From the sequence record NC_048164.1: a stretch of 32,448 nucleotides of DNA. One strand, given 5' to 3'. The notes under the pieces are model-generated. The model searched no databases. It was not told the DNA's origin and worked only from the letters and a program-made list of their open reading frames with translations. Positions 817 through 24,492 of this stretch are shown here, in pieces. This stretch comes from Escherichia phage HZP2. A program made the translations under genes and the position numbers. Within the stretch, counting starts at the first letter, position 1. Every line of letters starts with the position of its first letter.

Positions 817-1086
817 ATGGAAAAAGATAAGAGCCTTATCACGTTCTTAGAGATGTTGGACACTGCGATGGCACAGCGTATGCTTGCTGACCTTTCTGAC
901 CCTGAGCGGCGTTCTCCACAACTCTATAACGCCATCAACAAACTGTTAGACCGTCATAAGTTCCAGATTGGTAAGTTGCAACCTGATGAGCACATCTTGG
1001 GTGGCCTCGCCGGTGCTCTGGATGAGTACAAGTCTAAAGTTGGATACGATGGTCTCACTGATGACGACATTTACACTTTGCAGTGA
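817..1086 (+). CDS. 18: terminase small subunit (T7 gp18 homolog)
   Basis: 89 aa starting MEKDKSLITFLEMLDTAMAQRMLADLSD..., matching T7 gp18. The ORF-track start at 808 is a GTG extension; the ATG at 817 matches the T7 N-terminus. Confidence 0.92.
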   Translation: MEKDKSLITFLEMLDTAMAQRMLADLSDPERRSPQLYNAINKLLDRHKFQIGKLQPDEHILGGLAGALDEYKSKVGYDGLTDDDIYTLQ

Positions 1087-1130
1087 TATACTCAAGGTCT
1101 CCTACGGGTGGCCTTTATGAATGTCATTGG
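1086..1130 (+). promoter_or_regulatory. RNase III processing site (R18.5-like stem-loop)
   Basis: Motif ..ATACTCAAGGTCTCCTACGGGTGGCCTTTATGAATGTC.. is the conserved T7 RNase III site architecture (ACTCAAGGTC ... GGCCTTTATGA). Confidence 0.6.
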
Positions 1131-1145
1131 CATTTAGGAGGTACT

Positions 1146-1586
1146 ATGAGTCTATTCAATAAGTTGTTACCTTGGGTTCTAGCTGGGATGCTATTCGGAT
1201 GGGGATGGCACCTTGGGGCAGACTCAATGGACGCCAAGTGGAAACAGGAGGTACAGAATGAGTACGTTAAGAGAGTTGAGGCTACAGCGAGCACTCAAAG
1301 AGCACTCAATGAAATATCGGCTAAGTATCAAGAAGACCTTGCCGCGTTGGAAGGGAGCACTGATAGGATTATTTCTGATTTGCGTAGCGACAATAAGCGG
1401 CTGCTCGTCAGAGTCAAAACTACCGGAACCTCCGATGGTAAGTGTAGATTCGAGCCTGATGGTCGAGCCGAACTTGACGACCGAGATGCTAAACGTATTA
1501 TCGCAGTGACCCAGAAGGGTGACGCGTGGATTCGTGCGTTACAGGATACTATTCGTGAACTACAACGTAAGCAGGAAACCGAGTAA
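1146..1586 (+). CDS. 18.5: Rz-like i-spanin (T7 gp18.5 homolog)
   Basis: MSLFNKLLPWVLAGMLFGWGWHLGADSMDAKWKQEV... matches T7 gp18.5; start chosen at the ATG at 1146 with GGAGG RBS rather than the ORF-track GTG at 1083. Confidence 0.9.
   Translation: MSLFNKLLPWVLAGMLFGWGWHLGADSMDAKWKQEVQNEYVKRVEATASTQRALNEISAKYQEDLAALEGSTDRIISDLRSDNKRLLVRVKTTGTSDGKCRFEPDGRAELDDRDAKRIIAVTQKGDAWIRALQDTIRELQRKQETE
1258..1509 (+). CDS. 18.7: Rz1-like o-spanin lipoprotein (T7 gp18.7 homolog), embedded out of frame in 18.5
   Basis: MSTLRELRLQRALKEHSMKYRLSIKKTLPRWKGALIGLFLICVATISGCSSESKLPEPP... with lipobox (ISGC) and Pro-rich tail; embedded position typical of Rz1. Confidence 0.85.
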   Translation: MSTLRELRLQRALKEHSMKYRLSIKKTLPRWKGALIGLFLICVATISGCSSESKLPEPPMVSVDSSLMVEPNLTTEMLNVLSQ

Positions 1587-1595: not shown

Positions 1596-3356
1596 GTGTC
1601 TACTCAGTCCAATCGTAATGCGCTCGTTGTGGCGCAACTAAAGGGTGACTTCGTGGCGTTCCTGTTCGTCTTATGGAAGGCGTTAAACCTACCAGTGCCA
1701 ACTAAGTGTCAAATCGACATGGCTAAGGTGCTGGCGAATGGAGACAACAAGAAGTTCATCCTACAGGCTTTCCGTGGTATCGGTAAGTCATTCATCACAT
1801 GTGCGTTCGTTGTGTGGTCCTTATGGAGGGACCCTCAGTTGAAGATACTTATCGTATCAGCTTCTAAAGAACGTGCAGACGCTAACTCCATATTCATCAA
1901 GAACATCATTGACCTGCTGCCGTTTCTCAGTGAGTTGAAGCCGAGACCCGGACAGCGTGACTCTGTGATTAGTTTTGATGTTGGCCCCGCTAGTCCTGAC
2001 CACTCGCCTAGTGTGAAATCAGTAGGTATCACTGGTCAGTTAACAGGTAGTCGTGCTGATATTATCATTGCGGATGACGTTGAGATTCCGTCTAACAGTG
2101 CTACTATGGGTGCCCGTGAGAAGCTATGGACTCTCGTTCAGGAGTTCGCTGCGTTACTTAAACCACTACCTACGTCTCGTGTTATCTACCTTGGTACCCC
2201 TCAGACTGAGATGACTCTCTATAAGGAACTTGAGGATAACCGTGGGTACACAACCATTATCTGGCCTGCTCTGTATCCAAGGACACACGAAGAGAACCTC
2301 TATTACTCACAGCGTCTTGCTCCTATGCTACGTGCTGAGTACGATGAGAACCCTGAGGCACTCGCTGGGACTCCTACAGACCCTGTTCGGTTCGACCGAG
2401 ACGACCTGCGTGAGCGTGAGTTGGAATACGGTAAGGCTGGCTTTACGCTACAGTTCATGCTTAACCCGAACCTGAGTGACGCTGAGAAGTACCCTCTGAG
2501 GCTCCGTGACGCTATCGTAGCGGTCTTAGACTTAGAGAAGGCACCGATGCATTACCAGTGGCTTCCGAACCGTCAGAACATCATTGAGGACCTTCCTAAC
2601 GTGGGCCTTAAGGGTGACGACCTACATACATACCATGAGTGCTCGAATAACTCTGGTCAGTATCAACAGAAGATTCTGGTCATTGACCCAAGTGGTCGTG
2701 GTAAGGACGAAACAGGTTACGCTGTGCTGTACACCCTCAACGGTTACATCTACCTAATGGAAGCTGGTGGTTTCCGTGACGGTTACTCCGATAAGACCCT
2801 TGAGTTGCTCGCTAAGAAAGCCAAGCAATGGGGAGTCCAGACGGTTGTCTACGAGAGTAACTTCGGTGATGGTATGTTTGGTAAGGTATTCAGTCCTATC
2901 CTTCTTAAACACCACAACTGCGCGATGGAGGAGATTCGTGCTCGTGGTATGAAGGAGATTCGTATTTGTGATACCCTTGAGCCAGTCATGCAGACTCACC
3001 GCCTTATCATTCGCGATGAGGTCATTAGGGCCGACTACCAGTCAGCTCGTGACGTAGACGGTAAACATGACGTTAAGTATTCACTATTCTACCAGATGAC
3101 CCGTATCACCCGTGAGAAAGGTGCTCTGGCTCATGATGACCGATTGGATGCCCTTGCGTTAGGCGTTGAGTATCTCCGTGAGTCCATGCAGTTGGATTCC
3201 GTTAAGGTCGAAGGTGAAGTGCTTGCTGACTTCCTTGAGGAACACATGATGCGTCCTACAGTTTCTGCTACCCACATCATTGAGATGTCTGTAGGAGGAG
3301 TTGATGTGTACTCTGAGGACGATGAGGGATACGGTACGTCTTTCATTGAGTGGTGA
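1596..3356 (+). CDS. 19: terminase large subunit / DNA maturase B (T7 gp19 homolog)
   Basis: 586 aa, near-identical to T7 gp19 ([24 protein letters not shown]...TSFIEW). GTG start at 1596 directly after GGAGG; T7 gene 19 also appears to start with GTG. Confidence 0.95.
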
Positions 3357-3393
3357 TTTATGAGGCCAAGGAAGGCCGCTTTAAGGAGGTAAT

Positions 3394-3837
3394 ATGATAA
3401 GCAAGAAGAAGTATGTTATCGATAAGGAGACTGGTTGCTGGAACTTTAGGGGATGTAAGACGAAGACTGGTTATGGTCGCATTCGTGTGAACGGAGTCCA
3501 TTGGATGGCCCACAGGTATTCCCTGAGTTGTCATCTAGGCAGACCGATAGCTGACGGAATGGTTGTGATGCACCTATGTGATAATCCTTCATGTGTTAAC
3601 CCTGAGCACCTTAAGGAAGGGACTCAGAAGGAGAACATAGAGGACTGCATCTCAAAAGGTCGTGCAACTAAGTCCACAGGTAAACGTGATGCAACTAAGA
3701 GAGACCCTAGCGAGGAACGTAAGGCTATAGTGATTCGAAGATACCATAAAGGCTGGACCGCAACGTCCATAGCGAGATACCATAAGCTCTCTGTGGCGTG
3801 GGTAAAGAGGGTCATTGAGGATTACCTAAGTGATTGA
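3394..3837 (+). CDS. free-standing HNH homing endonuclease (HNH motif plus C-terminal helix-turn-helix)
   Basis: 147 aa; GCWNF..GYGRIRVNG..HR....VVMHLCDNPSCVNPEHL is an HNH_3-type motif, same architecture as T7 gp7.7/gp5.3. Strong RBS TAAGGAGGT 7 nt upstream. T7 has no gene at this position. Confidence 0.85.
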   Translation: MISKKKYVIDKETGCWNFRGCKTKTGYGRIRVNGVHWMAHRYSLSCHLGRPIADGMVVMHLCDNPSCVNPEHLKEGTQKENIEDCISKGRATKSTGKRDATKRDPSEERKAIVIRRYHKGWTATSIARYHKLSVAWVKRVIEDYLSD

Positions 3838-4644: not shown

Positions 4645-4692
4645 ATCCTAACGACCATCCTAACGACCATCCTAACGACCATCCTAACGACC
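4645..4692. repeat. tandem direct repeat, 4 perfect copies of 12-bp unit ATCCTAACGACC (plus a degenerate fifth)
   Basis: Directly visible: ATCCTAACGACC x4 at 4645-4692 followed by ATCCTGATGATG; lies in the left-end non-coding region where T7 has an array of short CCTAAAG-containing repeats. Confidence 0.95.
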
Positions 4693-4747
4693 ATCCTGAT
4701 GATGCCTTGTCGTTACTTATAAAGAGATGACCAATAATCATTGTCTT

Positions 4748-4770
4748 TAATTCGACTCACTATAGGGAGA
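4748..4770 (+). promoter_or_regulatory. T7 RNAP promoter (phiOL-like, left-end)
   Basis: TAATTCGACTCACTATAGGGAGA, identical 23-mer to the phiOR-like promoter at 3889-3911; located just upstream of the host-promoter array like T7 phiOL. Confidence 0.8.
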
Positions 4771-4827
4771 GGAGACTACTTAAAGAGGGCCAGAGAGAGA
4801 TTAATCAAAATAATTTAAAAAAGAGTA

Positions 4828-4856
4828 TTGACTTAAAGAGCCTTAAGGGTTACTAT
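4828..4856 (+). promoter_or_regulatory. host sigma70 early promoter A1
   Basis: TTGACT - 17 bp - TACTAT; context AAAAGAGTATTGACTTAAAG matches the T7 A1 promoter. Confidence 0.8.
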
Positions 4857-4955
4857 TCATCTCGTCAACGGGACAACGGCCTAAAAGCCACTCCCCGAGA
4901 TACCGGGGTCAACCGGATAAGTAGACAGCTTGATAAGTCATACGAAAAACAAGCA

Positions 4956-4985
4956 TTGACAACACGCAGTAACATGCAGTAAGAT
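4956..4985 (+). promoter_or_regulatory. host sigma70 early promoter A2
   Basis: TTGACA - 18 bp - TAAGAT; context ACGAAAAACAAGCATTGACAACA matches T7 A2. Confidence 0.8.
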
Positions 4986-5079
4986 ACACAGCGCTAGGTA
5001 ACACTAGCAGCGCCAACCGGACGAACGGTGTCTTCTAGGTGACTCAAGCGCACCACGGCACACAAAGCAAACAAAACGG

Positions 5080-5108
5080 TTGACAACATGCAGTAAACAC
5101 GGTACGAT
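5080..5108 (+). promoter_or_regulatory. host sigma70 early promoter A3
   Basis: TTGACA - 17 bp - TACGAT; context AACAAAACGGTTGACAACATG..GGTACGATGTAC matches T7 A3. Confidence 0.8.
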
Positions 5109-5226
5109 GTACTACAAGCAGTAAGGGCGTAGGGATAGGAACCGAGAAACCTGCCCGTGACCCGCCAAGGATAAGGCACTAGCCATGAGTCGAATTCGGT
5201 CACTCATCGCATAAAAGAATAACAGG

Positions 5227-5255
5227 TTGACAGCCTCCTTTAAAAGCTGTAATAT
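5227..5255 (+). promoter_or_regulatory. additional host sigma70-type promoter (fourth in the tandem array)
   Basis: TTGACA - 17 bp (GCCTCCTTTAAAAGCTG) - TAATAT; sits ~147 bp downstream of A3, continuing the ~125-bp spacing of A1/A2/A3. Its downstream context (GTACCCACGAAATGACGGAACAGTGAGTCACCACACTGAAAGG) corresponds to the sequence that follows A3 in T7. Confidence 0.6.
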
Positions 5256-5443
5256 GTACCCACGAAATGACGGAACAGTGAGTCACCACACTGAAAGGTG
5301 ATGCGGTCTAACGAAACCTGACCAAAGACGCTCTTTAACAATCTGGTAAACGGCTCTTGAGTGTACACACGTAGCGGATAACTCAAGGGTATCGCAAGAT
5401 GCCCTTTATGATATCCACTAACAACTCTATGAGGTAACACACA

Positions 5444-5806
5444 ATGGCTATGTCTAACATGACTTATAACAACGTTTTCGATCACGCTTACGAAATGCTG
5501 AAAGAAAATATCCGTTATGATGACATTCGTGACACTGATGGTCTTGGGGACGCAATCCACATGGCAGCCGATAGCGCCGTTCCGCACTATTACAGCGACA
5601 TTTTCAGTGTAATGGCAAGCGAGGGCATTGACCTTGAGTTCGAGGATTCTGGTCTTATGCCGGACACCAAGGACGTAATCCGTATCCTGCAAGCACGTAT
5701 CTATGAGCAATTAACGATTGACCTCTGGGAAGACGCTGAGGACTTACTGGACGAGTATCTCGAGGAAGTCGAAGAGTCAGAAGAGTACGAGGAGGACGAA
5801 GAGTAA
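5444..5806 (+). CDS. ocr: Ocr (overcome classical restriction), DNA-mimic anti-restriction protein (T7 gp0.3 homolog)
   Basis: 120 aa [32 protein letters not shown]...acidic C-terminal tail ([14 protein letters not shown]); near-identical to T7 gp0.3. Confidence 0.95.
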
Positions 5807-5961
5807 TGGCTAACAACACCACGCAATACGGTCTGACCGCTCAAACTGTACTGTTTTATAGTGACATGGTGCGCTGTGGTTTTGACTGGTCGCTAGCAAT
5901 GGAACACCTTAAGGAACTGTACGAAAACAACAAGGCAATAGCCTTGGAGTCTGCTGAGTGA
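5806..5961 (+). CDS. 0.4: gp0.4 homolog (in T7 an FtsZ-inhibiting early protein)
   Basis: 51 aa [51 protein letters not shown]; ATG overlaps the ocr stop (TAATG); matches T7 gp0.4. Confidence 0.85.
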   Translation: MANNTTQYGLTAQTVLFYSDMVRCGFDWSLAMEHLKELYENNKAIALESAE

Positions 5962-6005
5962 TAGGCTCAAGGTCGCTCAATACGAGTGGCCTTTATGATT
6001 ATCAT
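5959..6005 (+). promoter_or_regulatory. RNase III processing site (R0.5-like)
   Basis: TGATAGGCTCAAGGTCGCTCAATACGAGTGGCCTTTATGATTATCA, conserved T7 RNase III site architecture. Confidence 0.6.
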
Positions 6006-6023
6006 TCTGAAACAGGTGTACCT

Positions 6024-6467
6024 ATGTCACAACAAGCTAAAACTTGCATAGCGTGCGGTGAGTTCAAGCCGTTGACGCAATACTACAAGAATGCCTCATC
6101 CCTTGATGGTCACATTGGGACGTGTAAGGCATGTAAGGCCAAACAACAAAGGGAACGAAGGGCACGGAAAAGCAACGCAGAGAGATACAAAAAGGAGGCA
6201 GCACGCCGCCGCGCCAATCATCTGCGAGCAAACTACGGGATAGAAGAGGAAACCTATCGCAAGATGTACGAAGAACAACATGGGGTCTGCGCCATATGCA
6301 AACAACCTGAGAGTATTGAGGGCAGGAGTCTCTGTGTGGACCATTCACATATTACAGGAGAGGTACGTGGGCTTCTATGCTCCAATTGCAACAGAGGGAT
6401 TGGCTTACTCAAGGACTCCCCAGAGTTGGTACGAAACGCTTTTCACTACTTAACCGGTAAACTATAG
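6024..6467 (+). CDS. endonuclease VII-family (HNH-like) nuclease with N-terminal Cys-rich zinc-ribbon-like region; occupies the position of T7 gene 0.5
   Basis: 147 aa; C-terminal YEEQHGVCAICKQPE..LCVDHSHITGEVRGLLCSNCNRGIG matches the T4 endonuclease VII (gp49) N-terminal catalytic motif (C-x2-C ... DH-x-H ... VRGLLC-x2-CN). N-terminus has CIACG...CKACK plus an Arg/Lys-rich linker. Start set at the ATG at 6024 (ORF-track start 5958 is a GTG extension across the RNase III site). Confidence 0.85.
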   Translation: MSQQAKTCIACGEFKPLTQYYKNASSLDGHIGTCKACKAKQQRERRARKSNAERYKKEAARRRANHLRANYGIEEETYRKMYEEQHGVCAICKQPESIEGRSLCVDHSHITGEVRGLLCSNCNRGIGLLKDSPELVRNAFHYLTGKL

Positions 6468-6710
6468 GATGCACATTATGAAACACTACGTTATGCCTAT
6501 CCACACCAAGAACGGCGTAACCATGAGGTAGCTGTAGATGTACTAGGAAGAACCAATAACGCTATGCTCTGGGTCAATATGCTCTCTGGGGACTTTAAGT
6601 CGCTTGAGGAGCGAATCGCGCTGCGCTGGCGTAATGCTGACCGCATGGCTATCGCTAATGGTCTTCCGCTAAACATTGATAAGCAACTTGACGCAATGCT
6701 AATGGGCTGA
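6468..6710 (+). pseudogene. remnant of the gene 0.6 / 0.7 (protein kinase) region: 0.6 start fused out of frame to the last ~60 codons of 0.7
   Basis: ATGCACATTATGAAACACTACGTTATGCCTATCCACAC (gp0.6 N-terminus MKHYVMPIH) runs into GAACGGCGTAACCATGAGGTAGCTGTAGATGTACTAGG... which encodes the T7 gp0.7 C-terminus ([24 protein letters not shown]...[12 protein letters not shown]) in a different frame; the kinase domain is absent. Confidence 0.75.
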
Positions 6711-6755
6711 TAGTCTTATCTTACAGGTCATCTGCGGGTGGCCTGAATAGATACG
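6708..6755 (+). promoter_or_regulatory. RNase III processing site (R1-like) upstream of gene 1
   Basis: TGATAGTCTTATCTTACAGGTCATCTGCGGGTGGCCTGAATAG, matches the T7 R1 region. Confidence 0.55.
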
Positions 6756-6779
6756 ATTCCTGACCGAAAGAGGTACAAA

Positions 6780-9431
6780 ATGAGCACGATTAACATCGCT
6801 AAGAACGATTTCTCTGACATCGAACTAGCCGCTATCCCGTTCAATACTCTGGCTGACCACTACGGTGAGCGTCTAGCTCGCGAGCAGTTGGCCCTTGAGC
6901 ATGAGTCTTACGAAATGGGTGAAGCACGTTTCCGCAAGATGTTTGAGCGTCAACTCAAGGCCGGTGAGGTTGCAGACAACGCTGCCGCTAAGCCTCTTAT
7001 TACTACCCTGCTCCCCAAGATGATTGCACGCATCAACGATTGGTTTGAGGAAGTGAAAGCTAAGCGTGGCAAACGTCCAACCGCTTTCCAGTTCCTGCAG
7101 GGAATCAAGCCGGAATCTGTAGCGTATATCACCATTAAGACTACTCTTGCTTGCCTAACGAGCGTGGACAATACAACCGTTCAGGCTGTAGCAAGCGCCA
7201 TCGGACGGGCTATCGAGGAAGAAGCTCGCTTCGGTAGAATCCGTGACCTAGAAGCTAAGCACTTCAAGAAAAACGTTGAGGAACAACTAAACAAGCGCGT
7301 AGGGCACGTCTATAAGAAGGCATTCATGCAGGTAGTCGAGGCTGATATGCTCTCTAAGGGTCTACTAGGTGGCGAGGCGTGGTCTTCATGGCACAAGGAA
7401 GACTCCATTCACGTAGGTGTGCGCTGCATTGAGATGCTCATTGAGTCCACCGGAATGGTTAGCCTGCACCGCCAAAATGCTGGCGTAGTGGGCCAAGACT
7501 CTGAGACTATCGAGCTGGCACACGAATACGCTGAGGCTATCGCAACCCGCGCTGGGGCACTGGCTGGCATCTCTCCGATGTATCAGCCTTGCATAGTCCC
7601 TCCTAAGCCTTGGACTGGTGTAACTGGTGGTGGCTACTGGGCCAACGGTCGCCGCCCTCTGGTACTGGTACGCACTCACAGCAAGAAGGCACTGATGCGC
7701 TACGAAGATGTTTACATGCCTGAGGTATACAAGGCGATCAACATTGCGCAAAACACCGCATGGAAAATCAACAAGAAAGTCCTAGCAGTCGCCAACGTGA
7801 TAACCAAGTGGAAGCACTGCCCAGTCGAGGACATCCCTTCGATTGAGCGTGAAGAACTCCCGATGAAACCGGAAGACATCGACACGAATCCTGAGGCTCT
7901 CACCGCTTGGAAACGTGCTGCCGCTGCTGTGTACCGTAAAGACAAGGCACGCAAGTCTCGCCGCATCAGCCTTGAGTTCATGCTTGAGCAAGCCAATAAG
8001 TTTGCGAACCGTAAGGCCATCTGGTTCCCTTACAACATGGACTGGCGTGGCCGTGTGTACGCTGTGTCAATGTTTAATCCGCAAGGTAACGACATGACCA
8101 AAGGTCTGCTGACACTGGCTAAAGGTAAACCAATCGGCAAGGAAGGATTTTACTGGCTGAAAATCCACGGGGCCAACTGCGCGGGGGTCGATAAGGTTCC
8201 ATTCCCTGAGCGCATCAAGTTCATTGAGGACAACCACGATAATATCATGGCGTGCGCTAAGTCTCCACTTGAAAACACTTGGTGGGCTGAGCAAGATTCT
8301 CCGTTCTGCTTCCTCGCGTTCTGCTTTGAGTACGCTGGGGTACAGCACCACGGATTGAGCTACAACTGCTCGCTGCCGCTGGCGTTCGATGGGTCTTGCT
8401 CTGGCATCCAGCACTTCTCCGCAATGCTCCGCGACGAGGTAGGTGGTCGTGCTGTTAACCTACTGCCTAGCGAAACCGTTCAGGACATCTACGGGATTGT
8501 TGCCAAGAAAGTCAACGAGATTCTGCAAGAGGATGCAATCAACGGGACCGATAACGAAGTGATTACCGTGACCGATGAGAACACGGGCGAAATCTCTGAG
8601 AAAATCAAGCTGGGTACTAAAGCACTGGCTGGTCAATGGTTGGCCTACGGTGTGACCCGTAGCGTCACTAAACGTTCAGTCATGACGCTGGCCTATGGTT
8701 CCAAAGAGTTCGGCTTCCGTCAGCAAGTTCTGGAGGATACCATACAGCCAGCTATTGATTCAGGCAAAGGTCTGATGTTCACCCAACCCAATCAGGCCGC
8801 TGGGTACATGGCTAAGCTGATTTGGGAATCTGTGAGCGTTACCGTAGTGGCTGCTGTAGAGGCCATGAACTGGCTCAAGTCTGCCGCTAAGTTGTTGGCT
8901 GCTGAGGTCAAAGATAAGAAGACTGGTGAGATTCTTCGCAAGCGTTGCGCGGTGTATTGGGTAACTCCTGATGGCTTCCCTGTGTGGCAGGAATACAAGA
9001 AGCCTATTCAGACTCGCTTGAACCTGATGTTCCTCGGTCAGTTCCGCTTACAGCCAACCATTAACACTAACAAGGATAGTGAGATTGATGCACACAAACA
9101 GGAGTCCGGTATTGCCCCTAACTTTGTACACAGCCAAGACGGTAGCCACCTGCGTAAGACTGTAGTGTGGGCACATGAGAAGTACGGAATCGAATCGTTT
9201 GCATTGATTCACGACTCCTTCGGGACCATTCCGGCTGACGCTGCCAACCTATTCAAGGCTGTTCGTGAGACTATGGTTGACACCTACGAGTCCTGCGATG
9301 TACTTGCAGACTTCTACAACCAGTTCGCTGACCAGTTACATGAGTCTCAACTTGATAAAATGCCAGCACTTCCGGCTAAAGGTAGCTTGAATTTACGAGA
9401 CATCTTAGAGTCAGACTTCGCGTTTGCGTAA
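6780..9431 (+). CDS. 1: single-subunit DNA-directed RNA polymerase (T7 gp1 homolog)
   Basis: 883 aa, near-identical to T7 RNAP over its whole length (MSTINIAKNDFSDIELAAIPFNTLADHYGERLAREQLALEHESYEMGEARF ... HDSFGT ... DFAFA). Confidence 0.98.
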   Translation: MSTINIAKNDFSDIELAAIPFNTLADHYGERLAREQLALEHESYEMGEARFRKMFERQLKAGEVADNAAAKPLITTLLPKMIARINDWFEEVKAKRGKRPTAFQFLQGIKPESVAYITIKTTLACLTSVDNTTVQAVASAIGRAIEEEARFGRIRDLEAKHFKKNVEEQLNKRVGHVYKKAFMQVVEADMLSKGLLGGEAWSSWHKEDSIHVGVRCIEMLIESTGMVSLHRQNAGVVGQDSETIELAHEYAEAIATRAGALAGISPMYQPCIVPPKPWTGVTGGGYWANGRRPLVLVRTHSKKALMRYEDVYMPEVYKAINIAQNTAWKINKKVLAVANVITKWKHCPVEDIPSIEREELPMKPEDIDTNPEALTAWKRAAAAVYRKDKARKSRRISLEFMLEQANKFANRKAIWFPYNMDWRGRVYAVSMFNPQGNDMTKGLLTLAKGKPIGKEGFYWLKIHGANCAGVDKVPFPERIKFIEDNHDNIMACAKSPLENTWWAEQDSPFCFLAFCFEYAGVQHHGLSYNCSLPLAFDGSCSGIQHFSAMLRDEVGGRAVNLLPSETVQDIYGIVAKKVNEILQEDAINGTDNEVITVTDENTGEISEKIKLGTKALAGQWLAYGVTRSVTKRSVMTLAYGSKEFGFRQQVLEDTIQPAIDSGKGLMFTQPNQAAGYMAKLIWESVSVTVVAAVEAMNWLKSAAKLLAAEVKDKKTGEILRKRCAVYWVTPDGFPVWQEYKKPIQTRLNLMFLGQFRLQPTINTNKDSEIDAHKQESGIAPNFVHSQDGSHLRKTVVWAHEKYGIESFALIHDSFGTIPADAANLFKAVRETMVDTYESCDVLADFYNQFADQLHESQLDKMPALPAKGSLNLRDILESDFAFA

Positions 9432-13869: not shown

Positions 13870-13905
13870 CCACAACGGTTTCCCTTTAAACACAAGGAGG
13901 AATCT

Positions 13906-16066
<2,161 letters not shown>

Positions 16067-17113: not shown

Positions 17114-19072
17114 ATGATCGTTTCTGACATCGAAGCTAACGCCCTCTTAGAGAGCGTCACTAAGTTCCACTGCGGGGTTATCTACGACTACTCCACCGCT
17201 GAGTACGTAAGCTACCGTCCGAGTGACTTCGGTGCGTATCTGGATGCGCTGGAAGCCGAGGTTGCACGAGGCGGTCTTATTGTGTTCCACAACGGTCACA
17301 AGTATGACGTTCCAGCATTGACCAAACTGGCTAAGTTACAGCTTAACCGTGAGTTCCACCTACCCCGTGAGAACTGTATTGACACACTTGTGTTGTCACG
17401 CTTGATTCACTCAAACCTGAAAGACACCGATATGGGTCTTCTGCGTTCCGGTAAACTTCCGGGTAAACGCTTTGGGTCTCACGCTTTGGAGGCGTGGGGC
17501 TATCGCTTAGGTGAAATGAAGGGTGAATACAAAGATGACTTTAAGCGTATGCTTGAAGAACAAGGTGAAGAATACGTTGACGGCATGGAGTGGTGGAACT
17601 TCAACGAAGAGATGATGGCCTATAACGTTCAGGACGTTGTGGTCACTAAGGCTCTCCTTGAGAAGCTACTCTCTGACAAACATTACTTCCCTCCTGAGAT
17701 TGACTTTACGGACGTAGGCTACTCTACGTTCTGGTCAGAATCCCTTGAGGCCGTTGATGTTGAACATCGTGCTGCGTGGCTACTCGCTAAGCAAGAGCGA
17801 AATGGATTCCCATTTGACACGAAAGCAATCGAAGAGTTGTACGTAGAGTTGGCTGCCCGCCGCTCTGAGTTGCTCCGCAAATTGACCGAAACGTTCGGCT
17901 CGTGGTATCAGCCTAAGGGTGGCACAGAAATGTTCTGCCATCCGAGGACTGGTAAGCCATTACCTAAATATCCTCGCATTAAGACACCTAAAGTTGGTGG
18001 TATCTTTAAGAAGCCTAAGAACAAGGCACAGCGAGAGGGCCGTGAGCCTTGTGAACTGGATACCCGTGAATACGTTGCTGGTGCTCCATATACTCCTGTA
18101 GAGCACGTAGTGTTTAACCCTTCGTCCCGTGACCACATTCAGAAGAAACTTCAAGAGGCTGGATGGGTCCCCACGAAGTACACCGATAAGGGTGCGCCTG
18201 TGGTGGACGATGAGGTACTCGAAGGAGTACGTGTAGATGACCCTGAGAAGCAAGCCGCTATCGACCTTATTAAAGAATACCTGATGATTCAGAAGAGAAT
18301 CGGTCAGTCTGCTGAGGGAGACAAGGCATGGCTTCGTTACGTTGCTGAGGATGGTAAAATTCATGGTTCTGTTAACCCTAATGGAGCAGTTACGGGTCGT
18401 GCTACCCATGCGTTCCCAAACCTTGCGCAAATTCCGGGTGTACGTTCTCCTTATGGTGAGCAGTGCCGCGCTGCTTTTGGCGCTGAACATCACTTAGATG
18501 GACTTACAGGTAAGCCTTGGGTTCAGGCTGGTATAGACGCCTCCGGTCTGGAGTTACGTTGCTTGGCCCACTTTATGGCTCGCTTTGATAACGGTGAGTA
18601 CGCTCACGAGATTCTTAATGGTGACATTCACACTAAGAATCAGATAGCTGCCGAATTGCCTACCCGTGATAACGCCAAGACGTTCATCTATGGGTTCCTT
18701 TATGGTGCTGGTGATGAGAAGATTGGGCAGATTGTTGGTGCTGGCAAAGAACGCGGTAAGGAACTCAAGAAGAAATTCCTTGAGAACACTCCAGCGATTG
18801 CTGCACTCCGAGAGTCTATCCAACAGACACTCGTTGAGTCATCTCAGTGGGTAGCTGGTGAACAGCAAGTCAAGTGGAAACGCCGCTGGATTAAAGGACT
18901 TGATGGGCGCAAAGTCCATGTCCGTAGTCCTCATGCTGCCCTGAACACCTTGCTGCAATCTGCTGGTGCTCTTATCTGCAAACTGTGGATTATCAAGACC
19001 GAAGAGATGCTCTTAGAGAAAGGCTTGAAGCATGGCTGGGATGGGGACTTTGCGTACATGGCATGGGTGCAT
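17114..19072 (+). CDS. 5: DNA polymerase (T7 gp5 homolog), exon 1 (residues 1-653)
   Basis: [36 protein letters not shown]... near-identical to T7 gp5 up to ..[13 protein letters not shown]. The frame then runs into non-homologous KLSHCAH-stop, while the missing 51 C-terminal residues of gp5 are encoded at 19674-19829. Confidence 0.95.
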
Positions 19073-19673
19073 AAACTATCTCATTGTGCACATTAAATCT
19101 GGTGAACTCGGTGAAACCCTTCTAGGGCAATACCGAGCCAAGCCATAGGGAGGATATATGAGAGGCAAGAAGTTAATCCTTGCGACCACAGAGAGTGGTT
19201 GTATCATCCCTACGTCACACAAACTTAATACTGATGGTTATTTCCGAAAGAAGACGAACGGTGTCCTAGAGATGTATCACAGGACAGTCTGGAAGGAACA
19301 CTACGGAGATATACCAGAAGGGTATGAAGTAGACCACAAGTGTAGGAACAGGGCGTGCTGTAACGTAGAGCACCTCCAGTTATTAGAAGGTTCTGAGCAT
19401 ACAGTCAAGACAAACAGGGAACGATACGCTGACCGTAAAGAGTCCGCGAAGGAACACTGGTTGGAGACTGGATGTACAGGAACACACTTAGGTGAGAAGT
19501 TTGGTGTAACGTTCTCTGCCGCTTGTAAGTGGATTAGAGAGTGGAAGGCGTAGAGACTATCCGAAAGGAGTAGGGCCGAGGGTGAGATTCCCTCGTTACC
19601 CGAAGCGCCAGACAGTCAACTCAAAGGCTGATGATATAGTCCGACACTCCTAGCAATAGGAGAATACAGAAAG
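19073..19673 (+). mobile_element. group I self-splicing intron (601 nt) interrupting DNA polymerase gene 5
   Basis: Exon 1 ends in U (..GUGCAU) and an internal guide-like GTGCAC at 19086-19091 can pair with it with a terminal U.G wobble (P1). P7-like pairing GACTAT (19555-19560) / ATAGTC (19636-19641) with a GAAA tetraloop hairpin between. Intron ends in G (..CAGAAAG) directly before exon 2 GATGAGATT. Joining 19072 to 19674 restores the exact T7 gp5 sequence WVH/DEIQVGC. Confidence 0.85.
19158..19553 (+). CDS. intron-encoded HNH homing endonuclease
   Basis: 131 aa; EGYEVDHKCRNRACCNVEHLQL (HNH motif) with C-terminal helix-turn-helix-like segment; GGGAGG RBS; in a different frame from gene 5; stop TAG lies just before the P7 element. 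Confidence 0.85.
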   Translation: MRGKKLILATTESGCIIPTSHKLNTDGYFRKKTNGVLEMYHRTVWKEHYGDIPEGYEVDHKCRNRACCNVEHLQLLEGSEHTVKTNRERYADRKESAKEHWLETGCTGTHLGEKFGVTFSAACKWIREWKA

Positions 19674-19829
19674 GATGAGATTCAGGTAGGTTGTCGTACC
19701 GAAGAGATTGCTCAGGTGGTCATTGAGACTGCACAGGAAGCGATGCGCTGGGTAGGAGACCACTGGAACTTCCGGTGTCTTCTGGATACCGAAGGTAAGA
19801 TGGGTCCTAATTGGGCTGTATGTCACTAA
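19674..19829 (+). CDS. 5: DNA polymerase (T7 gp5 homolog), exon 2 (C-terminal 51 residues)
   Basis: DEIQVGCRTEEIAQVVIETAQEAMRWVGDHWNFRCLLDTEGKMGPNWAVCH-stop, equals the T7 gp5 C-terminus; no start codon of its own (hence absent from the ORF track). Exon 1 plus exon 2 = 704 aa, the length of T7 gp5. Confidence 0.9.
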   Translation, partial: DEIQVGCRTEEIAQVVIETAQEAMRWVGDHWNFRCLLDTEGKMGPNWAVCH

Positions 19830-19848
19830 TTCTATAGGAGAAATTATT

Positions 19849-20148
19849 ATGGCTATGACCAAGAAATTTAAAGTGTCCTTCGACGTTACCGCTAAGATGA
19901 CATCTGACGTTCAGGCAATCTTAGAGAAAGATATGCTGCACCTGTGTAAGCAGGTTGGCTCCGGTGCTATTGTTCCTAACGGCAAGCAGAAAGAGATGAT
20001 TGTTCAGTTCCTGACTCATGGTATGGAAGGGGTGATGACCTTCATTGTTCGCACAACATTCCGTGAGGCTATCAAGGAAATGAACGAAGAGTATGTCGAT
20101 AAGGACTCCTTCAAGTTATCTCCTACCACTGTACGGGAGGTGTTCTAA
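19849..20148 (+). CDS. 5.5: gp5.5 homolog (H-NS-binding protein in T7)
   Basis: 99 aa MAMTKKFKVSFDVTAKMTSDVQAILEKDMLHLCKQVGSG..., matches T7 gp5.5. Confidence 0.9.
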   Translation: MAMTKKFKVSFDVTAKMTSDVQAILEKDMLHLCKQVGSGAIVPNGKQKEMIVQFLTHGMEGVMTFIVRTTFREAIKEMNEEYVDKDSFKLSPTTVREVF

Positions 20149-20357
20149 TGTCCGACTACCTGAAAGTGCTGCAAGCAATCAAAAGTTGCCCTAAGACTTT
20201 CCAGTCCAACTATGTACGGAACAATGCGAGCCTCGTAGCGGAGGCCGCTTCCCGTGGTCACATCTCATGTCTGACCACAAGTGGACGAAACGGTGGTGCT
20301 TGGGAAATCACTGCTTCTGGTACTCGCTTTCTGAAACGAATGGGAGGGTGTGTCTGA
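20148..20357 (+). CDS. 5.7: gp5.7 homolog
   Basis: 69 aa MSDYLKVLQAIKSCPKTFQSNYVRNNASLVAEAASRGHISCLTTSGRNGGAWEITASGTRFLKRMGGCV, matches T7 gp5.7. Confidence 0.9.
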   Translation: MSDYLKVLQAIKSCPKTFQSNYVRNNASLVAEAASRGHISCLTTSGRNGGAWEITASGTRFLKRMGGCV

Positions 20358-20515
20358 TGATACGTGACACTGTAACAATTCCTCGTGATGCGTGGAACGA
20401 TATGCAGGGTTATATTGATTCTCTGGAACGTGAGAACGATAGCCTTAAGAACCAACTTATGGAAGCTGACGAGTACGTGGCTGAACTAGAGGAGAAACTT
20501 AATGGCGCTTCTTGA
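20357..20515 (+). CDS. 5.9: gp5.9 homolog (RecBCD inhibitor in T7)
   Basis: 52 aa MIRDTVTIPRDAWNDMQGYIDSLERENDSLKNQLMEADEYVAELEEKLNGAS, matches T7 gp5.9; ATG overlaps the 5.7 stop (TGATG). Confidence 0.85.
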   Translation: MIRDTVTIPRDAWNDMQGYIDSLERENDSLKNQLMEADEYVAELEEKLNGAS

Positions 20516-21404
20516 CCTAAAACAATTCTACGAGTTACGTGAAGGCTGTGACGACAAGGGTATCCTCGTTATGGACGGTGACTGGTTGGTCTTCCAAGCG
20601 ATGAGTGCTGCTGAGTTTGATGCCTCATGGGAGGAAGAGATTTGGCACCGCTGCTGTGACCACGCTAAGGCACGTCAGATTCTTGAGGATTCCATCAAGT
20701 CCTACGAGACCCGCAAGAAGGCTTGGGTAGGCGCTCCGATTGTCCTTGCGTTCACAGATAGTGTCAACTGGCGTAAAGAACTGGTAGACCCTAACTACAA
20801 GGCTAACCGTAAGGCCACGAAGAAACCTGTAGGTTACTTTGAGTTCCTTGAGGCTCTCTTTGAGCGTGAAGAGTTCTACTGCATTCGTGAGCCTATGCTT
20901 GAGGGAGATGACGTTATGGGAGTGATTGCTTCCAATCCGTCTGCCTTCGGTGCCCGTAAAGCTGTAATTATCTCATGCGATAAGGACTTTAAGACAATCC
21001 CTAACTGCGACTTCCTATGGTGTACCACTGGTAACATTCTGACTCAGACCGAAGAGTCCGCTGACTGGTGGCACCTCTTCCAGACAATCAAGGGTGACAT
21101 TACCGATGGTTACTCAGGGATTGCCGGATGGGGCGATACTGCCGAGTACTTCTTGAATAACCCGTTCATAACCGAGCCTAAAACGTCTGTGCTTAAGTCT
21201 GGTAAGAATAAGGGGCAGGAGGTAACTAAGTGGGTTAAGCGTGACCCTGAGCCACATGAGACGCTCTGGGACTGCATTAAGTCCATCGGAGCGAAGGCTG
21301 GCATGACCGAAGAGGATGTCATCAAGCAGGGCCAAATGGCTCGAATCCTACGGTTCAATGAGTACAACTTTATTGACAAGGAGATTTACCTGTGGAGACC
21401 GTAG
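20502..21404 (+). CDS. 6: 5'-3' exonuclease (T7 gp6 homolog)
   Basis: 300 aa MALLDLKQFYELREGCDDKGILVMDGDWLVFQAMSAAEFD..., near-identical to T7 gp6. Confidence 0.95.
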   Translation: MALLDLKQFYELREGCDDKGILVMDGDWLVFQAMSAAEFDASWEEEIWHRCCDHAKARQILEDSIKSYETRKKAWVGAPIVLAFTDSVNWRKELVDPNYKANRKATKKPVGYFEFLEALFEREEFYCIREPMLEGDDVMGVIASNPSAFGARKAVIISCDKDFKTIPNCDFLWCTTGNILTQTEESADWWHLFQTIKGDITDGYSGIAGWGDTAEYFLNNPFITEPKTSVLKSGKNKGQEVTKWVKRDPEPHETLWDCIKSIGAKAGMTEEDVIKQGQMARILRFNEYNFIDKEIYLWRP

Positions 21405-21505
21405 CGTATATTGGCATTGGTCTTTGTGTTCTCGGAATGGGCCTCATTGCGTGGGGCCTTTGGGACTTAGCCCGAATAATCAAGTCGTTACACGACATTA
21501 AGTGA
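21392..21505 (+). CDS. 6.3: gp6.3-like small membrane protein
   Basis: 37 codons from GTG at 21392: (M)ETVAYIGIGLCVLGMGLIAWGLWDLARIIKSLHDIK; same size and position as T7 gene 6.3. Start codon is uncertain (no in-frame ATG before residue 16). Confidence 0.5.
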   Translation: METVAYIGIGLCVLGMGLIAWGLWDLARIIKSLHDIK

Positions 21506-21506
21506 T

Positions 21507-21568
21507 AAACTCAAGGTCCCTAAATTAATACGACTCACTATAGGGAGATAGGGGCCTTTATGATTATT
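21507..21568 (+). promoter_or_regulatory. RNase III processing site (R6.5-like) enclosing the phi6.5 promoter
   Basis: AAACTCAAGGTCCC ... GGGGCCTTTATGATTA flanks the promoter, as in T7 R6.5. Confidence 0.55.
21526..21548 (+). promoter_or_regulatory. T7 RNAP promoter (phi6.5-like), consensus class III sequence
   Basis: TAATACGACTCACTATAGGGAGA exact consensus. Confidence 0.9.
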
Positions 21569-21602
21569 ACTTTAAGATTTAACTCTAAGAGGAATCTTTA
21601 TT

Positions 21603-21857
21603 ATGCTAACACCTATTAACCATTTACTTAAGAACCCTAACGATATTCCAGACGTGCCTCGTGCAACCGCTGAGTATCTACAGGTTCGATTCAACCATGC
21701 GTACCTCGAAGCGTCTGGTCATATAGGATTTATGCGTGCTAGTGGTTGTAGTGAAGCCCACATCTTGGGTTTCATTCAGGGCCTACAGTATGCCTCTAAC
21801 ATCATTGACGAGATTGAGATGCGCAAGGAACAACTAAGAGAAGATGGGGAGGATTGA
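21603..21857 (+). CDS. 6.5: gp6.5 homolog
   Basis: 84 aa [84 protein letters not shown], matches T7 gp6.5. Confidence 0.9.
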
Positions 21858-21861
21858 CCTT

Positions 21862-22128
21862 ATGTGTTTCTCACCGAAAGTTAAAGTTCCGAAGATGGAT
21901 ACCAATCAGGTTCGAGCCGTTGAACCAGCGCCTCTGACCCAAGAAGTCTCAGGCGTGGAGTTCGGTGGGTCTTCTGATGAGACGGATACCGAGGGCACCG
22001 AAGTGTCTGGACGCAAAGACCTCAAGGTCGAACGCGACGATTCCGTAGCGAAGTCTAAAGCCGCTGGTTCTGGCTCTGCTCGTATGAAATCTTCAATCCG
22101 TAAGTCTGCATTCGGAGGTAAGAAGTAA
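21862..22128 (+). CDS. 6.7: gp6.7 homolog (virion-associated small protein)
   Basis: 88 aa MCFSPKVKVPKMDTNQVRAVEPAPLTQEVSGVEFGGSSDETDTEGTEVSGRKDLKVERDDSVAKSKAAGSGSARMKSSIRKSAFGGKK, matches T7 gp6.7. Confidence 0.88.
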   Translation: MCFSPKVKVPKMDTNQVRAVEPAPLTQEVSGVEFGGSSDETDTEGTEVSGRKDLKVERDDSVAKSKAAGSGSARMKSSIRKSAFGGKK

Positions 22129-22529
22129 TGTCTGAGTTCACATGTGTGGAGGCGAAAAGTCGCTTCCGTGCAATCCAATGGACTGTAGAGCGCCTTGGGT
22201 TGCCTAAGGGATTCGAAGGACACTTTATTGGTTACAGCCTCTACGTTGACGAAGTTATGGACATGTCTGGTTGTCACGAAGAGTACATTCTGGACTCTAC
22301 CGGAAAACATGTAGCGTACTTCGCGTGGTGCGTAAGCTGTGACATTCACCATAAAGGTGACATTCTGGATATAACGTCCGTTGTCATTAATCCTGAGGCA
22401 GACTCTAGGGGCTTACAGCGATTCTTAGCGAAACGCTTTAAGTGCCTTGCAGAACTCCACGATTGCGATTGGGTGTCTCGTTGTAAACATGAAGGCGAGA
22501 CAATGCGTGTATACTTTAAGGAGGTATAA
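22128..22529 (+). CDS. 7: gp7 homolog (host-range protein)
   Basis: 133 aa MSEFTCVEAKSRFRAIQWTVERLGLPKGFEGHFIGYSLYVDEVMDMSGCHEEY..., matches T7 gp7. Confidence 0.9.
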   Translation: MSEFTCVEAKSRFRAIQWTVERLGLPKGFEGHFIGYSLYVDEVMDMSGCHEEYILDSTGKHVAYFAWCVSCDIHHKGDILDITSVVINPEADSRGLQRFLAKRFKCLAELHDCDWVSRCKHEGETMRVYFKEV

Positions 22530-22532
22530 GTT

Positions 22533-22847
22533 ATGGGTAAGAAAATTAAGAAGGCCGTGAAGAAAGTCACTAAGTCCGTTAAGAAAGCCGTGAAGAAAGT
22601 TACCAAGGAAGTGGCTCGTCCGGTTAAACAGGTTGCTGGTGGTCTGGCCGGTGGTACTGGTGAGGCGCAAGTAGTGGAAGTTCCACAGGCTGCTGCAACT
22701 CCTGCTGCACAGATTGTTGACGTACCTGAGAAAGAGGTTTCCACTGAGGACGAAGCACAGACCGAAAGCGGACGTAAGAAAGCCCGTGCTGGTGGTAAGA
22801 AGTCCCTGAGCGTGGCTCGTAGCTCCGGTGGTGGAATCAATATTTAA
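22533..22847 (+). CDS. 7.3: gp7.3 homolog (tail/adsorption-associated protein)
   Basis: 104 aa MGKKIKKAVKKVTKSVKKAVKKVTKEVARPVKQVAGGLAGGTGEAQVVEV..., Lys-rich repeats as in T7 gp7.3. Confidence 0.9.
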   Translation: MGKKIKKAVKKVTKSVKKAVKKVTKEVARPVKQVAGGLAGGTGEAQVVEVPQAAATPAAQIVDVPEKEVSTEDEAQTESGRKKARAGGKKSLSVARSSGGGINI

Positions 22848-22861
22848 ACAGGAGGTGACAC

Positions 22862-24472
22862 ATGGCTGAGAAGCGTACAGGTCTAGCCGAGGAAGGAGCT
22901 AAGTCGGTCTATGAACGATTGAAGAACGACCGTGCCCCATACGAGACTCGCGCCCAAAACTGCGCTCAGTACACCATTCCGTCCCTCTTCCCTAAGGACT
23001 CCGATAACGCATCTACAGACTACACAACTCCGTGGCAAGCTGTAGGCGCTCGCGGTCTCAATAACTTGGCCTCTAAGCTCATGCTGGCACTCTTCCCTAT
23101 GCAAACGTGGATGAAGCTGACCATCTCTGAGTTTGAGGCCAAACAGTTACTGGATGACCCCGATGGACTCGCTAAGGTTGATGAGGGTCTCTCAATGGTA
23201 GAGCGTATAATCATGAACTACATTGAGTCTAACAGCTACCGAGTGACTCTCTTTGAGGCTCTCAAGCAGTTAGTCGTTGCTGGTAACGTACTGCTGTACC
23301 TACCGGAACCAGAAGGGTCGAACTACAATCCCATGAAGCTGTACCGCTTGTCTTCTTATGTGGTCCAACGAGACGCATTCGGCAACGTTCTGCAAATGGT
23401 GACTCGCGACCAGATAGCTTTCGGGGCACTCCCTGAGGATGTCCGTAAGGCTGTAGAAGGTCAAGGTGGTGAGAAGAAACCTGATGAGACCATTGATGTG
23501 TACACTCACATTTATATGGACGAGGAATCAGGAGAGTATCTCCGCTACGAAGAGGTTGAAGGTATGGAGGTCCAAGGTTCAGATGGGTCGTACCCTAAAG
23601 AGGCTTGTCCATACATCCCGATTCGAATGGTTCGACTAGATGGTGAATCCTATGGTCGTTCGTACATCGAGGAATACTTAGGCGACTTACGGTCCCTTGA
23701 GAATCTCCAAGAGGCTATCGTTAAGATGTCCATGATTAGCTCTAAGGTTATCGGCTTAGTGAATCCTGCTGGTATTACCCAGCCACGCCGACTGACCAAA
23801 GCTCAGACTGGTGACTTCGTTACTGGTCGTCCAGAAGACATCTCGTTCCTCCAACTGGAGAAGCAAGCAGACTTTACTGTGGCTAAGGCCGTCAGTGACG
23901 CTATCGAGGCTCGCCTTTCGTTTGCCTTTATGTTGAACTCTGCTGTTCAGCGCACTGGTGAACGTGTGACCGCCGAAGAGATTCGGTATGTCGCTTCTGA
24001 GCTTGAAGATACTTTAGGTGGTGTCTACTCAATCCTTTCTCAAGAATTACAATTGCCTCTGGTACGAGTGCTCTTGAAGCAACTACAAGCCACGCAACAG
24101 ATTCCTGAGTTACCTAAGGAAGCCGTAGAGCCAACTATTAGTACAGGTCTGGAAGCAATCGGTCGTGGTCAAGACCTTGATAAGCTGGAACGCTGTGTCT
24201 CTGCATGGGCTGCTCTGGCCCCTATGCGTGATGACCCAGACATTAACCTTGCGATGATTAAGTTACGCATTGCTAACGCTATCGGTATTGACACTTCTGG
24301 CATCCTTCTTACCGAAGAGCAGAAGCAACAGAAGATGGCGCAACAGTCTGTGCAAATGGGTATGGATAATGGTGCTGCTGCGCTTGGTCAAGGTATGGCT
24401 GCTCAGGCTACAGCTTCACCTGAGGCTATGGCTGCTGCCGCTGATTCCGTTGGTTTACAGCCGGGCATTTAA
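22862..24472 (+). CDS. 8: head-to-tail connector / portal protein (T7 gp8 homolog)
   Basis: 536 aa MAEKRTGLAEEGAKSVYERLKNDRAPYETRAQNCAQYTIPSLFPKDSDNASTDYTTPWQAVGARGLNNLASKLMLALFP..., near-identical to T7 gp8. Confidence 0.97.
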   Translation: MAEKRTGLAEEGAKSVYERLKNDRAPYETRAQNCAQYTIPSLFPKDSDNASTDYTTPWQAVGARGLNNLASKLMLALFPMQTWMKLTISEFEAKQLLDDPDGLAKVDEGLSMVERIIMNYIESNSYRVTLFEALKQLVVAGNVLLYLPEPEGSNYNPMKLYRLSSYVVQRDAFGNVLQMVTRDQIAFGALPEDVRKAVEGQGGEKKPDETIDVYTHIYMDEESGEYLRYEEVEGMEVQGSDGSYPKEACPYIPIRMVRLDGESYGRSYIEEYLGDLRSLENLQEAIVKMSMISSKVIGLVNPAGITQPRRLTKAQTGDFVTGRPEDISFLQLEKQADFTVAKAVSDAIEARLSFAFMLNSAVQRTGERVTAEEIRYVASELEDTLGGVYSILSQELQLPLVRVLLKQLQATQQIPELPKEAVEPTISTGLEAIGRGQDLDKLERCVSAWAALAPMRDDPDINLAMIKLRIANAIGIDTSGILLTEEQKQQKMAQQSVQMGMDNGAAALGQGMAAQATASPEAMAAAADSVGLQPGI

Positions 24473-24492
24473 TACGACTCACTATAGGGAGA
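24470..24492 (+). promoter_or_regulatory. T7 RNAP promoter (phi9-like), overlapping the gene 8 stop
   Basis: TAATACGACTCACTATAGGGAGA exact consensus. Confidence 0.9.

Follow-up and report, generated by a model that had tools for sequence, protein, structure and literature searches.

The gene 7.3–gene 8 junction of HZP2

We analysed a 32,448-nt stretch of the Escherichia phage HZP2 genome (NC_048164.1; hereafter the window), about 32.4 kb of a genome of roughly 39–40 kb, whose sequence identifies it as a piece of a T7-like (Teseptimavirus) genome. The upstream of the two ORFs that meet at the junction studied here (Table 1) was assigned to gp7.3 because Pfam VirionAssem_T7 matches it over its full length, and the downstream ORF to the gp8 portal because it matches Head-tail_con. 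Gene 7.3 ends in TAA at 22845–22847, gene 8 starts with ATG at 22862, and the spacer between them, ACAGGAGGTGACAC, contains the gene 8 Shine–Dalgarno (SD) sequence AGGAGGT at 22850–22856. Both flanking ORFs are intact and full length. The synteny around the junction is that of the T7 annotation, with the genes in the canonical order 6.5-6.7-7-7.3-8-9. An earlier sequence-only reading of this DNA had counted 14 nt between the gp7.3 stop and the gp8 start; the sequence and the ORF table show that both this length and its coordinates are exact.

The same reading had stated that T7 encodes an HNH endonuclease of ~130 aa, gene 7.7, between genes 7.3 and 8. The RefSeq T7 record (NC_001604) confirms the gene order, the size and the family, listing gene 7 at 19130–19531, 7.3 at 19535–19834, 7.7 at 19848–20240 and 8 at 20240–21850; gene 7.7, with 393 nt and 130 aa, is annotated 'HNH endonuclease' and matches Pfam HNH_3 (2.6e-13). 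The T7 coordinates given for it (~19100–19600) were off by about 700 nt and correspond to gene 7. Alignment of the window with T7, the check that had been proposed, leaves a single clean gap, about 393 nt long, whose place in the window is exactly the boundary of the spacer and the gene 8 ATG. The window shares its 7.3/8 flanks, insertion point and gene order with the 7.7 locus of T7 and with the orthologues of phages phiA1122, YpP-Y, YpP-R and YpsP-G, R and Y but, unlike that locus, lacks the 393-nt ORF and has an alternative haplotype at the 5' end of gene 8.

Searches with tblastn and blastn found no 7.7 orthologue elsewhere in the window. The best tblastn matches to gp7.7 were paralogous HNH cores with 46–49% and 33–41% identity, the closest being that of the gene at 3394–3837, at only 46–49% over the HNH core. 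Genes 15–17.5 of HZP2 lie outside the window, and no HNH gene is annotated over the counterpart of this part in phage HZ2R8, the nearest relative over the whole window (94.2% identity over 91%, 25 kb).

Table 1. Positions of the features discussed. Coordinates are those of the window unless another record is named.
Feature	Position	Strand	Evidence or remark
Gene 7.3, virion/tail assembly protein, 104 aa	22533..22847	+	ORF; Pfam VirionAssem_T7, E 1.7e-47, full length
14-nt intergenic spacer	22848..22861	+	Sequence read directly
Gene 8, portal/head–tail connector, 536 aa	22862..24472	+	ORF; Pfam Head-tail_con, E 1.6e-112
Gene 8 5' tract with all 14 occupancy-diagnostic sites	22873..22987	+	Alignment; bipartition ranking; IMG/VR scans
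Free-standing HNH_3 + HTH_23 gene	3394..3837	+	Pfam; directly after the terminase large subunit gene (1596..3356)
Endonuclease VII-domain ORF, 169 aa	5958..6467		Pfam PF02945, 2.1e-24; between ocr and the RNA polymerase gene
HNH_3 + AP2 gene	13906..14394	+	Pfam; at the T7 3.8 site, upstream of the primase/helicase ORF (14348..16066), whose start it overlaps
602-nt insertion that interrupts the DNA polymerase gene, with HNH_3 ORF 19158..19553	19072..19673	+	Pfam HNH_3, 6.6e-17
Indel 1, window versus HZ2R8			0.7 kinase, about 1 kb, HZ2R8 only
Indel 2, window versus HZ2R8			251-nt stretch in HZ2R8 only, just upstream of the Endonuclease VII ORF
Indel 3, window versus HZ2R8			277 nt in gene 1.7
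Indel 4, window versus HZ2R8	13888–14541		HNH_3 + AP2 gene
Indel 5, window versus HZ2R8	19072–19673		Polymerase insertion with HNH_3 ORF
Indel 6, window versus HZ2R8			7.7 gene of HZ2R8
ESh6-type HNH gene at the 7.3/8 site	Locus L006 (ESh6), 2551–2952		Further loci L028–L031
Junction of PDP351P2 (OZ035763.1)	Locus L025, 1801–2002		Clean 14-nt empty spacer with T7-type gene 8 haplotype
7.7 deletion of T7_300L (MZ375291.1)	Locus L026, about 1640–1680		Laboratory-evolved T7; spontaneous

Distribution of endonuclease genes at the 7.3/8 site

A homing endonuclease gene (HEG) occupies the junction in T7, YpP-Y, HZ2R8, C5, LNA7, ESh6, ESh2 and pO111. The junction is empty in the Teseptimavirus phages Yep_9, EG1, NC-A, WW2, N30, JeanTinguely, CICC 80001 and IME390. 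The 14-nt spacing recurs in all eight of these empty junctions, as annotated or read, and is exact in Yep_9, EG1, WW2, CICC 80001, JeanTinguely and N30; the spacer sequence is identical to that of the window or differs by 1 nt in a total of 11 other empty phages and contigs. These HEG-free genomes also share the SD sequence and the gene 8 haplotype of the window, to which they are 92–95% identical in this region, although their other nuclease genes differ. In phages T3 and K11, too, gene 8 directly follows gene 7.3 with no HEG between them.

Window positions 22100–23400 matched 197 phage records by megablast (best identity 95.3%), and most of the non-T7 records among them align in one piece and therefore have no insert there. 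With a query made from the empty junction, coverage reached 80% or more in about 818 of 975 Studiervirinae records, a count that still includes about 110 occupied records whose two matching pieces were joined by BLAST. DNA of the HZ2R8 7.7 gene, used as a query, matched 115 phage records, nearly all of them laboratory T7, the remaining carriers being the Yersinia pestis phages phiA1122, YpP-Y, YpP-R and YpsP-G/R/Y together with HZ2R8, C5 and LNA7. The T7-type gene is confined to T7 and its Y. pestis relatives. Because most Studiervirinae records cover the empty junction, T3 and K11 are empty and 7.7 DNA occurs in only ~115 records, absence of 7.7 is the norm among T7 relatives and T7 is the exception.

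The occupants fall into three HNH_3 lineages. The HZ2R8-type gene (HZ2R8, C5 and LNA7) is 68.5% identical to T7 7.7 in nucleotide sequence and 71% in amino acid sequence, and the ESh6-type gene (ESh6, ESh2 and pO111) encodes a protein 47% identical to T7 gp7.7. All are cassettes of 393–402 nt that encode an HNH_3 nuclease followed by a C-terminal helix-turn-helix (HTH); the HZ2R8 and ESh6 types match HNH_3 at 7.4e-16 and 1.8e-12, and their HTH matches are weak, below the Pfam cut-offs. At ~70% nucleotide identity, ESh6-type copies also occupy the 7.3/8 site of Escherichia phage Tarrare and of the Klebsiella Teetrevirus VAC1. The occurrence of this lineage in Teseptimavirus (ESh6, ESh2, pO111 and Tarrare) as well as in a Teetrevirus suggests that it has spread between genera. 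HNH genes of at least three lineages recurrently occupy the 7.3/8 site. Occupancy is sporadic and does not follow the backbone phylogeny, since HZ2R8 is occupied and more distant relatives are empty.

Structure of the occupied allele

Comparison of the window with T7, HZ2R8 and Yep_9 across the junction shows how the occupied allele is built. In HZ2R8, C5 and LNA7 the sequence runs from ...AGGAGGTGACAC into ATGGAG...(393 nt)...CATATCTA and then into ATGGCTGAG, whereas in the window ...AGGAGGTGACAC is followed directly by ATGGCTGAG. The 393-nt HEG ORF is inserted between ...GGTGACAC and ATGGCT, giving boundaries of the form ...GGTGACAC / ATGG...TA / ATGGCT, and the two alleles are therefore related by a precise indel in which the inserted unit is the ORF alone. 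In the T7 and HZ2R8 types, the HEG takes over the ribosome-binding site that belongs to gene 8 where the junction is empty. In all types, the last codons of the HEG (...TWRHI and stop, ACATGGAGRCAYATYTAATG) provide gene 8 with a new GGAG and with a TAATG stop/start overlap. The 5' junction of the ESh6 type differs in that its ATG overlaps the 7.3 stop codon as ATGA and the spacer is replaced; its 3' junction is the same. Because the insert consists of the ORF only and the RefSeq T7 record annotates no promoter between phi6.5 and gene 8, the HEG is a promoter-less cassette.

A gene 8 haplotype linked to occupancy

We aligned window positions 21600–24480 with the corresponding sequences of six occupied phages (T7, YpP-Y, HZ2R8, C5, LNA7 and ESh6) and six other empty phages. 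The alignment has 502 variable columns, of which 14 have non-overlapping alleles in the occupied and empty groups. All 14 of these diagnostic sites fall at window positions 22873–22987, within the first 126 nt of gene 8; the 1,260 nt upstream and roughly 1,500 nt further downstream in the same alignment contain no such site. Almost all are at third codon positions, with the tightest cluster at 22873–22894. When all 4,082 bipartitions of the 13 sequences with a smaller group of 2–6 are ranked by number of diagnostic sites, the occupied/empty split comes first. The most variable stretch of the aligned region lies elsewhere, in the Ala/Gly/Val-rich centre of gp7.3 (22600–22699), with 42 variable sites per 100 nt and short indels; its variation does not follow HEG occupancy.

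The haplotype carried by the window, termed 'empty' (E), is that of 11 of the 12 empty genomes examined. All six occupied phages agree throughout the first 39 nt of gene 8, and the window departs from them at 8 of these positions; relative to T7, it has these 8 differences and a total of 26 in the first 129 nt. ESh2 and pO111, which carry the third HEG type, also have the occupied-type (O) haplotype. In IMG/VR, all five contigs with an occupied-type 30-mer have a HEG upstream and all seven with the empty-type 30-mer have the 14-nt spacer, a concordance of 12/12 contigs of which only three are independent metagenomic sequences. Within the first 141 nt of gene 8, two members of the T3 group, VAC1 with a HEG and T3 without one, show four differences, of which three are at nucleotides 12–27. 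The linkage is correlative and drawn from ~20 related genomes that are not phylogenetically independent.

The HZ2R8 genome is a mosaic around this tract. Its markers upstream of the site (8 diagnostic sites) place HZ2R8 with the window, EG1, WW2 and Yep_9, and those at the 5' end of gene 8 place it with T7. Through position 22861, and again after 23151, its identity to the window is 95–98%, the variable 7.3 centre (90%) excepted. Across 22862–23150, by contrast, it is 94–100% T7-like and only 76–85% window-like, the exception being a 60-nt stretch (22991–23050) in which it resembles both about equally. In ESh6 the T7-like tract is patchy, covering 22862–22900 and 22941–22990 and ending near 22990.

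These patterns point to 22873–22987 as a putative co-conversion tract that would hold the target of the endonuclease or the determinants of immunity. Immunity cannot depend on every part of the tract, because its second cluster (22948–22987) is of the 'empty' type in Tarrare and VAC1, which carry a HEG and are more distant. We therefore rejected this cluster as a general immunity determinant; its alleles are probably hitch-hiking rather than functional.

Exceptions to the linkage and a laboratory deletion

We searched the phage collection for recombinant alleles using chimeric queries. A query joining the 3' end of 7.7 to the E haplotype retrieved no natural record of a HEG combined with that haplotype, the best matches being T7 itself at 87%. 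The reverse chimera had one natural match, the Teseptimavirus PDP351P2, which has the same spacer as the window next to an O haplotype. PDP351P2 is a candidate for a 'resistant, HEG-free' allele or, alternatively, for precise loss of a HEG. Its 7.3 stop codon is TGA rather than TAA. Because PDP351P2 is empty with an occupied-type haplotype, the haplotype link is one-directional and not absolute: an empty phage may have the resistant-type sequence but no carrier has the sensitive type, which is the asymmetry predicted by self-immunity.

The collection also contains T7_300L, in which the deletion of 7.7 is imprecise. Unlike in the window, the last 23 nt of 7.7 are kept, including the GGAG that serves gene 8.

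Other nuclease genes in the window

T7 has four such genes: 2.8, 3.8 and 7.7, all HNH_3, and 5.3, which is of the PD-(D/E)XK type (PDDEXK_5). The window lacks 2.8, 5.3 and 7.7. Where 2.8 would lie, the last position of gp2.5, 12934, directly adjoins the first of endonuclease I, 12935, and in place of 5.3 only 20 nt separate the end of the polymerase gene from the start of gp5.5 (19829–19849).

The sequence-only reading had placed the HNH genes of the window at new sites. This is so for the gene after the terminase and for the ORF within the polymerase gene but not for the HNH_3 + AP2 gene, which is at the T7 3.8 site. The gene after the terminase is shared with HZ2R8, where it is annotated as an HNH endonuclease (2887..3330), and T7 has no nuclease gene there. 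The gene at the 3.8 site differs from T7 gp3.8, which has HNH_3 only, and the window segment that contains it has no counterpart in HZ2R8, which has just 205 nt at that place.

The 602-nt polymerase insertion is precisely absent from HZ2R8. The polymerase ORF (17114..19096) breaks off after ...AYMAWVH, and its C-terminal end resumes by 19716..19829. Rfam searches at gathering thresholds gave no match in the window; in a permissive local search, the full group I intron model RF00028 matched 19063–19663 with 35.3 bits (E 3.9e-7), below the gathering score of 50. Mobile group I introns have been reported in the polymerase genes of T7-like phages, and on these sequence features the insertion is probably one of them.

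The Endonuclease VII-domain ORF is also present, unannotated, in HZ2R8. It could be another free-standing nuclease, because an Endonuclease VII-type family of homing endonucleases has been described (F-CphI; PMC6083498).

In total, the window and HZ2R8 differ by six large indels (Table 1), three of which are the presence or absence of a nuclease gene or intron. The window lacks the gene 0.7 protein kinase (6467–6780, against HZ2R8 6283–7281), which takes up about 1 kb in HZ2R8 and in T7; only about 300 nt lie between the Endonuclease VII ORF and the RNA polymerase gene. Relative to T7, the window is circularly permuted: positions 1–6800 run from an Rz-like spanin (1083..1586) through the terminase and the HNH_3 + HTH gene to ocr (5444..5806). 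The intervening ~1.6 kb (3838–5443) has no plus-strand ORF of at least 60 aa and presumably holds the genome ends and early promoters.

Origin of the empty junction

We consider it likely that positions 22848–22861 are the unoccupied allele of a recurrent site for free-standing HNH HEGs, into which 7.7-type nucleases home by intronless homing. In the T4 form of this process, the enzyme cuts a conserved neighbouring gene in a genome without the HEG, repair copies the HEG and co-converts its flanks, and target polymorphisms protect the carriers (PMC2988022; PMC2790892). Several T4 seg and mob genes are promoter-less cassettes, and one HEG can replace another at a site, as SegH/Hef do for mobC/mobE (PMC2988022). 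The HEGs at 7.3/8 resemble the T4 seg and mob genes in being promoter-less, sporadic and intergenic between conserved essential genes, as with MobE between nrdA and nrdB or SegG between genes 32 and 59. They differ in the distance over which they would act, the putative tract lying 10–130 nt from the insertion point where the T4 free-standing enzymes typically act over hundreds of base pairs; moreover, HZP2 presents the empty allele and the T4 examples are carriers. HEGs are also found at recombination boundaries next to essential genes in ICP1 and other phages (Barth, Dunham and Seed 2023; PMC10448857). ICP1 and the 7.3/8 site have in common a HEG beside an essential structural gene, here the portal gene, and a switch of phylogenetic signal at the HEG position; they differ in phage group and HEG families, and the boundary here is a short tract rather than an island of >10 kb.

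By analogy with the T4 seg and mob genes, the endonuclease would be expected to cut a HEG-free allele in gene 8 during mixed infection. The cut would then be repaired with the HEG-bearing genome as template, so that the HEG and neighbouring gene 8 sequence are copied into the recipient; carriers would be protected by polymorphisms in the target. The missing gene, the precise indel, the HNH family of the occupants, their sporadic distribution and the localized haplotype linkage are observations; that gp7.7 cleaves, where in gene 8 it does so and which way the gene moved are inferred from them. The HZP2 lineage most likely never received a HEG, or regained the empty state through recombination with an empty phage, and the 5' end of its gene 8 is predicted to be a cleavable haplotype and thus a sensitive recipient, because the window combines the empty spacer with the E haplotype seen in nearly all of the empty genomes. 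More tentatively, and at somewhat less than even confidence, the tract at 22873–22987, in nucleotides 12–130 of the portal gene, and most tightly 22873–22894, may hold a recognition or cleavage site common to the T7-, HZ2R8- and ESh6-type HNH lineages, which would compete for one homing site in at least two genera (Teseptimavirus and Teetrevirus); the window would then be the cleavage-sensitive allele and PDP351P2 a 'resistant but empty' stage of the HEG life cycle.

The absence of 7.7 could instead be a derived state, the HZP2 lineage having once carried the gene and deleted it. The nearest overall relative, HZ2R8, has 7.7; models of the HEG life cycle include loss; 7.7 is dispensable (PMC12153263); and the empty spacer of PDP351P2 next to an occupied-type gene 8 could itself record a precise loss. 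However, a simple deletion from an HZ2R8-like ancestor would retain the occupied-type tract, as in PDP351P2, whereas in the window a canonical spacer is followed by the E haplotype, and the one spontaneous deletion in the database, T7_300L, left part of 7.7 behind. Furthermore, HZ2R8 groups with the window upstream of the site and only its gene 8 5' tract is foreign, which points to gain in HZ2R8. Secondary loss is therefore unlikely, and a lineage that was never invaded is the likelier history. An error of assembly, or relocation of 7.7 elsewhere in the HZP2 genome, can hardly be credited. The window does cover only part of the genome and is circularly permuted, but the junction has the same form in a total of more than ten independently sequenced phages and metagenomic contigs, its flanking ORFs are intact, the in-window similarities to gp7.7 are to paralogous HNH cores (33–49% identity) and the HZ2R8 annotation has no HNH gene in genes 15–17.5.

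The two haplotypes might also be unconnected with endonuclease targeting and have arisen as co-adapted contexts for translation initiation, one for an SD-dependent start and the other for a TAATG-coupled start, with the absence of 7.7 being neutral and spread by ordinary recombination. The first cluster of diagnostic sites covers codons 4–11, where mRNA structure affects initiation, the upstream context does differ between the empty and occupied states, and a benefit other than nuclease activity, in anti-defence, has been reported for T7 homing endonucleases. We nevertheless regard this explanation as highly improbable, given that the tract extends to +126 nt, and to ~+290 nt in HZ2R8, far past the initiation region, and that PDP351P2, a sequenced phage genome, pairs an independent SD start with the O haplotype. 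The occupation of one site by three lineages of HNH_3 proteins with DNA-binding domains is, moreover, the pattern of competing HEGs. For the synonymous differences of the first cluster taken alone, however, adjustment of gene 8 initiation to two upstream contexts could be an explanation.

Against the homing explanation, the literature searched contains no report of cleavage, nicking or homing activity of gp7.7, and the protein could therefore be inactive or domesticated. One preprint deletes T7 2.8, 3.8 and 7.7 as 'three homing endonucleases' and reports that catalytically dead gp3.8 attenuated GAPS4 defence and that T7 lacking all three genes was outcompeted under GAPS4 (bioRxiv 10.1101/2025.09.07.674715). 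Because this work gives the T7 homing endonucleases an anti-defence role, selection rather than homing could maintain 7.7.

Implications

The absence of 7.7 from HZP2 is an ordinary HEG-free allele, the majority state among T7 relatives and one already visible in public annotations. T7-like and T4-like phages are well known to be mosaic in part through variation in their homing endonuclease content, and the sequence-only reading's view of this absence as presence/absence polymorphism typical of homing endonucleases is supported by the sporadic carriage, the precise indel and the signature of a conversion tract in the flank. What is new, if only mildly, is a linkage of haplotype to occupancy that is sharply confined to the 5'-most 126 nt of the portal gene.

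The junction also bears on the design of engineered T7, in which 7.7 is treated as dispensable and the 7.3/8 locus is used for payloads (PMC12153263). For a clean payload design, the natural empty junction is the 14-nt SD spacer, and the HEG, where present, supplies its own coupling signal for gene 8. For the T7-like phages themselves, the haplotype linkage predicts where endonucleases of the gp7.7 site act: at the 5' end of gene 8.
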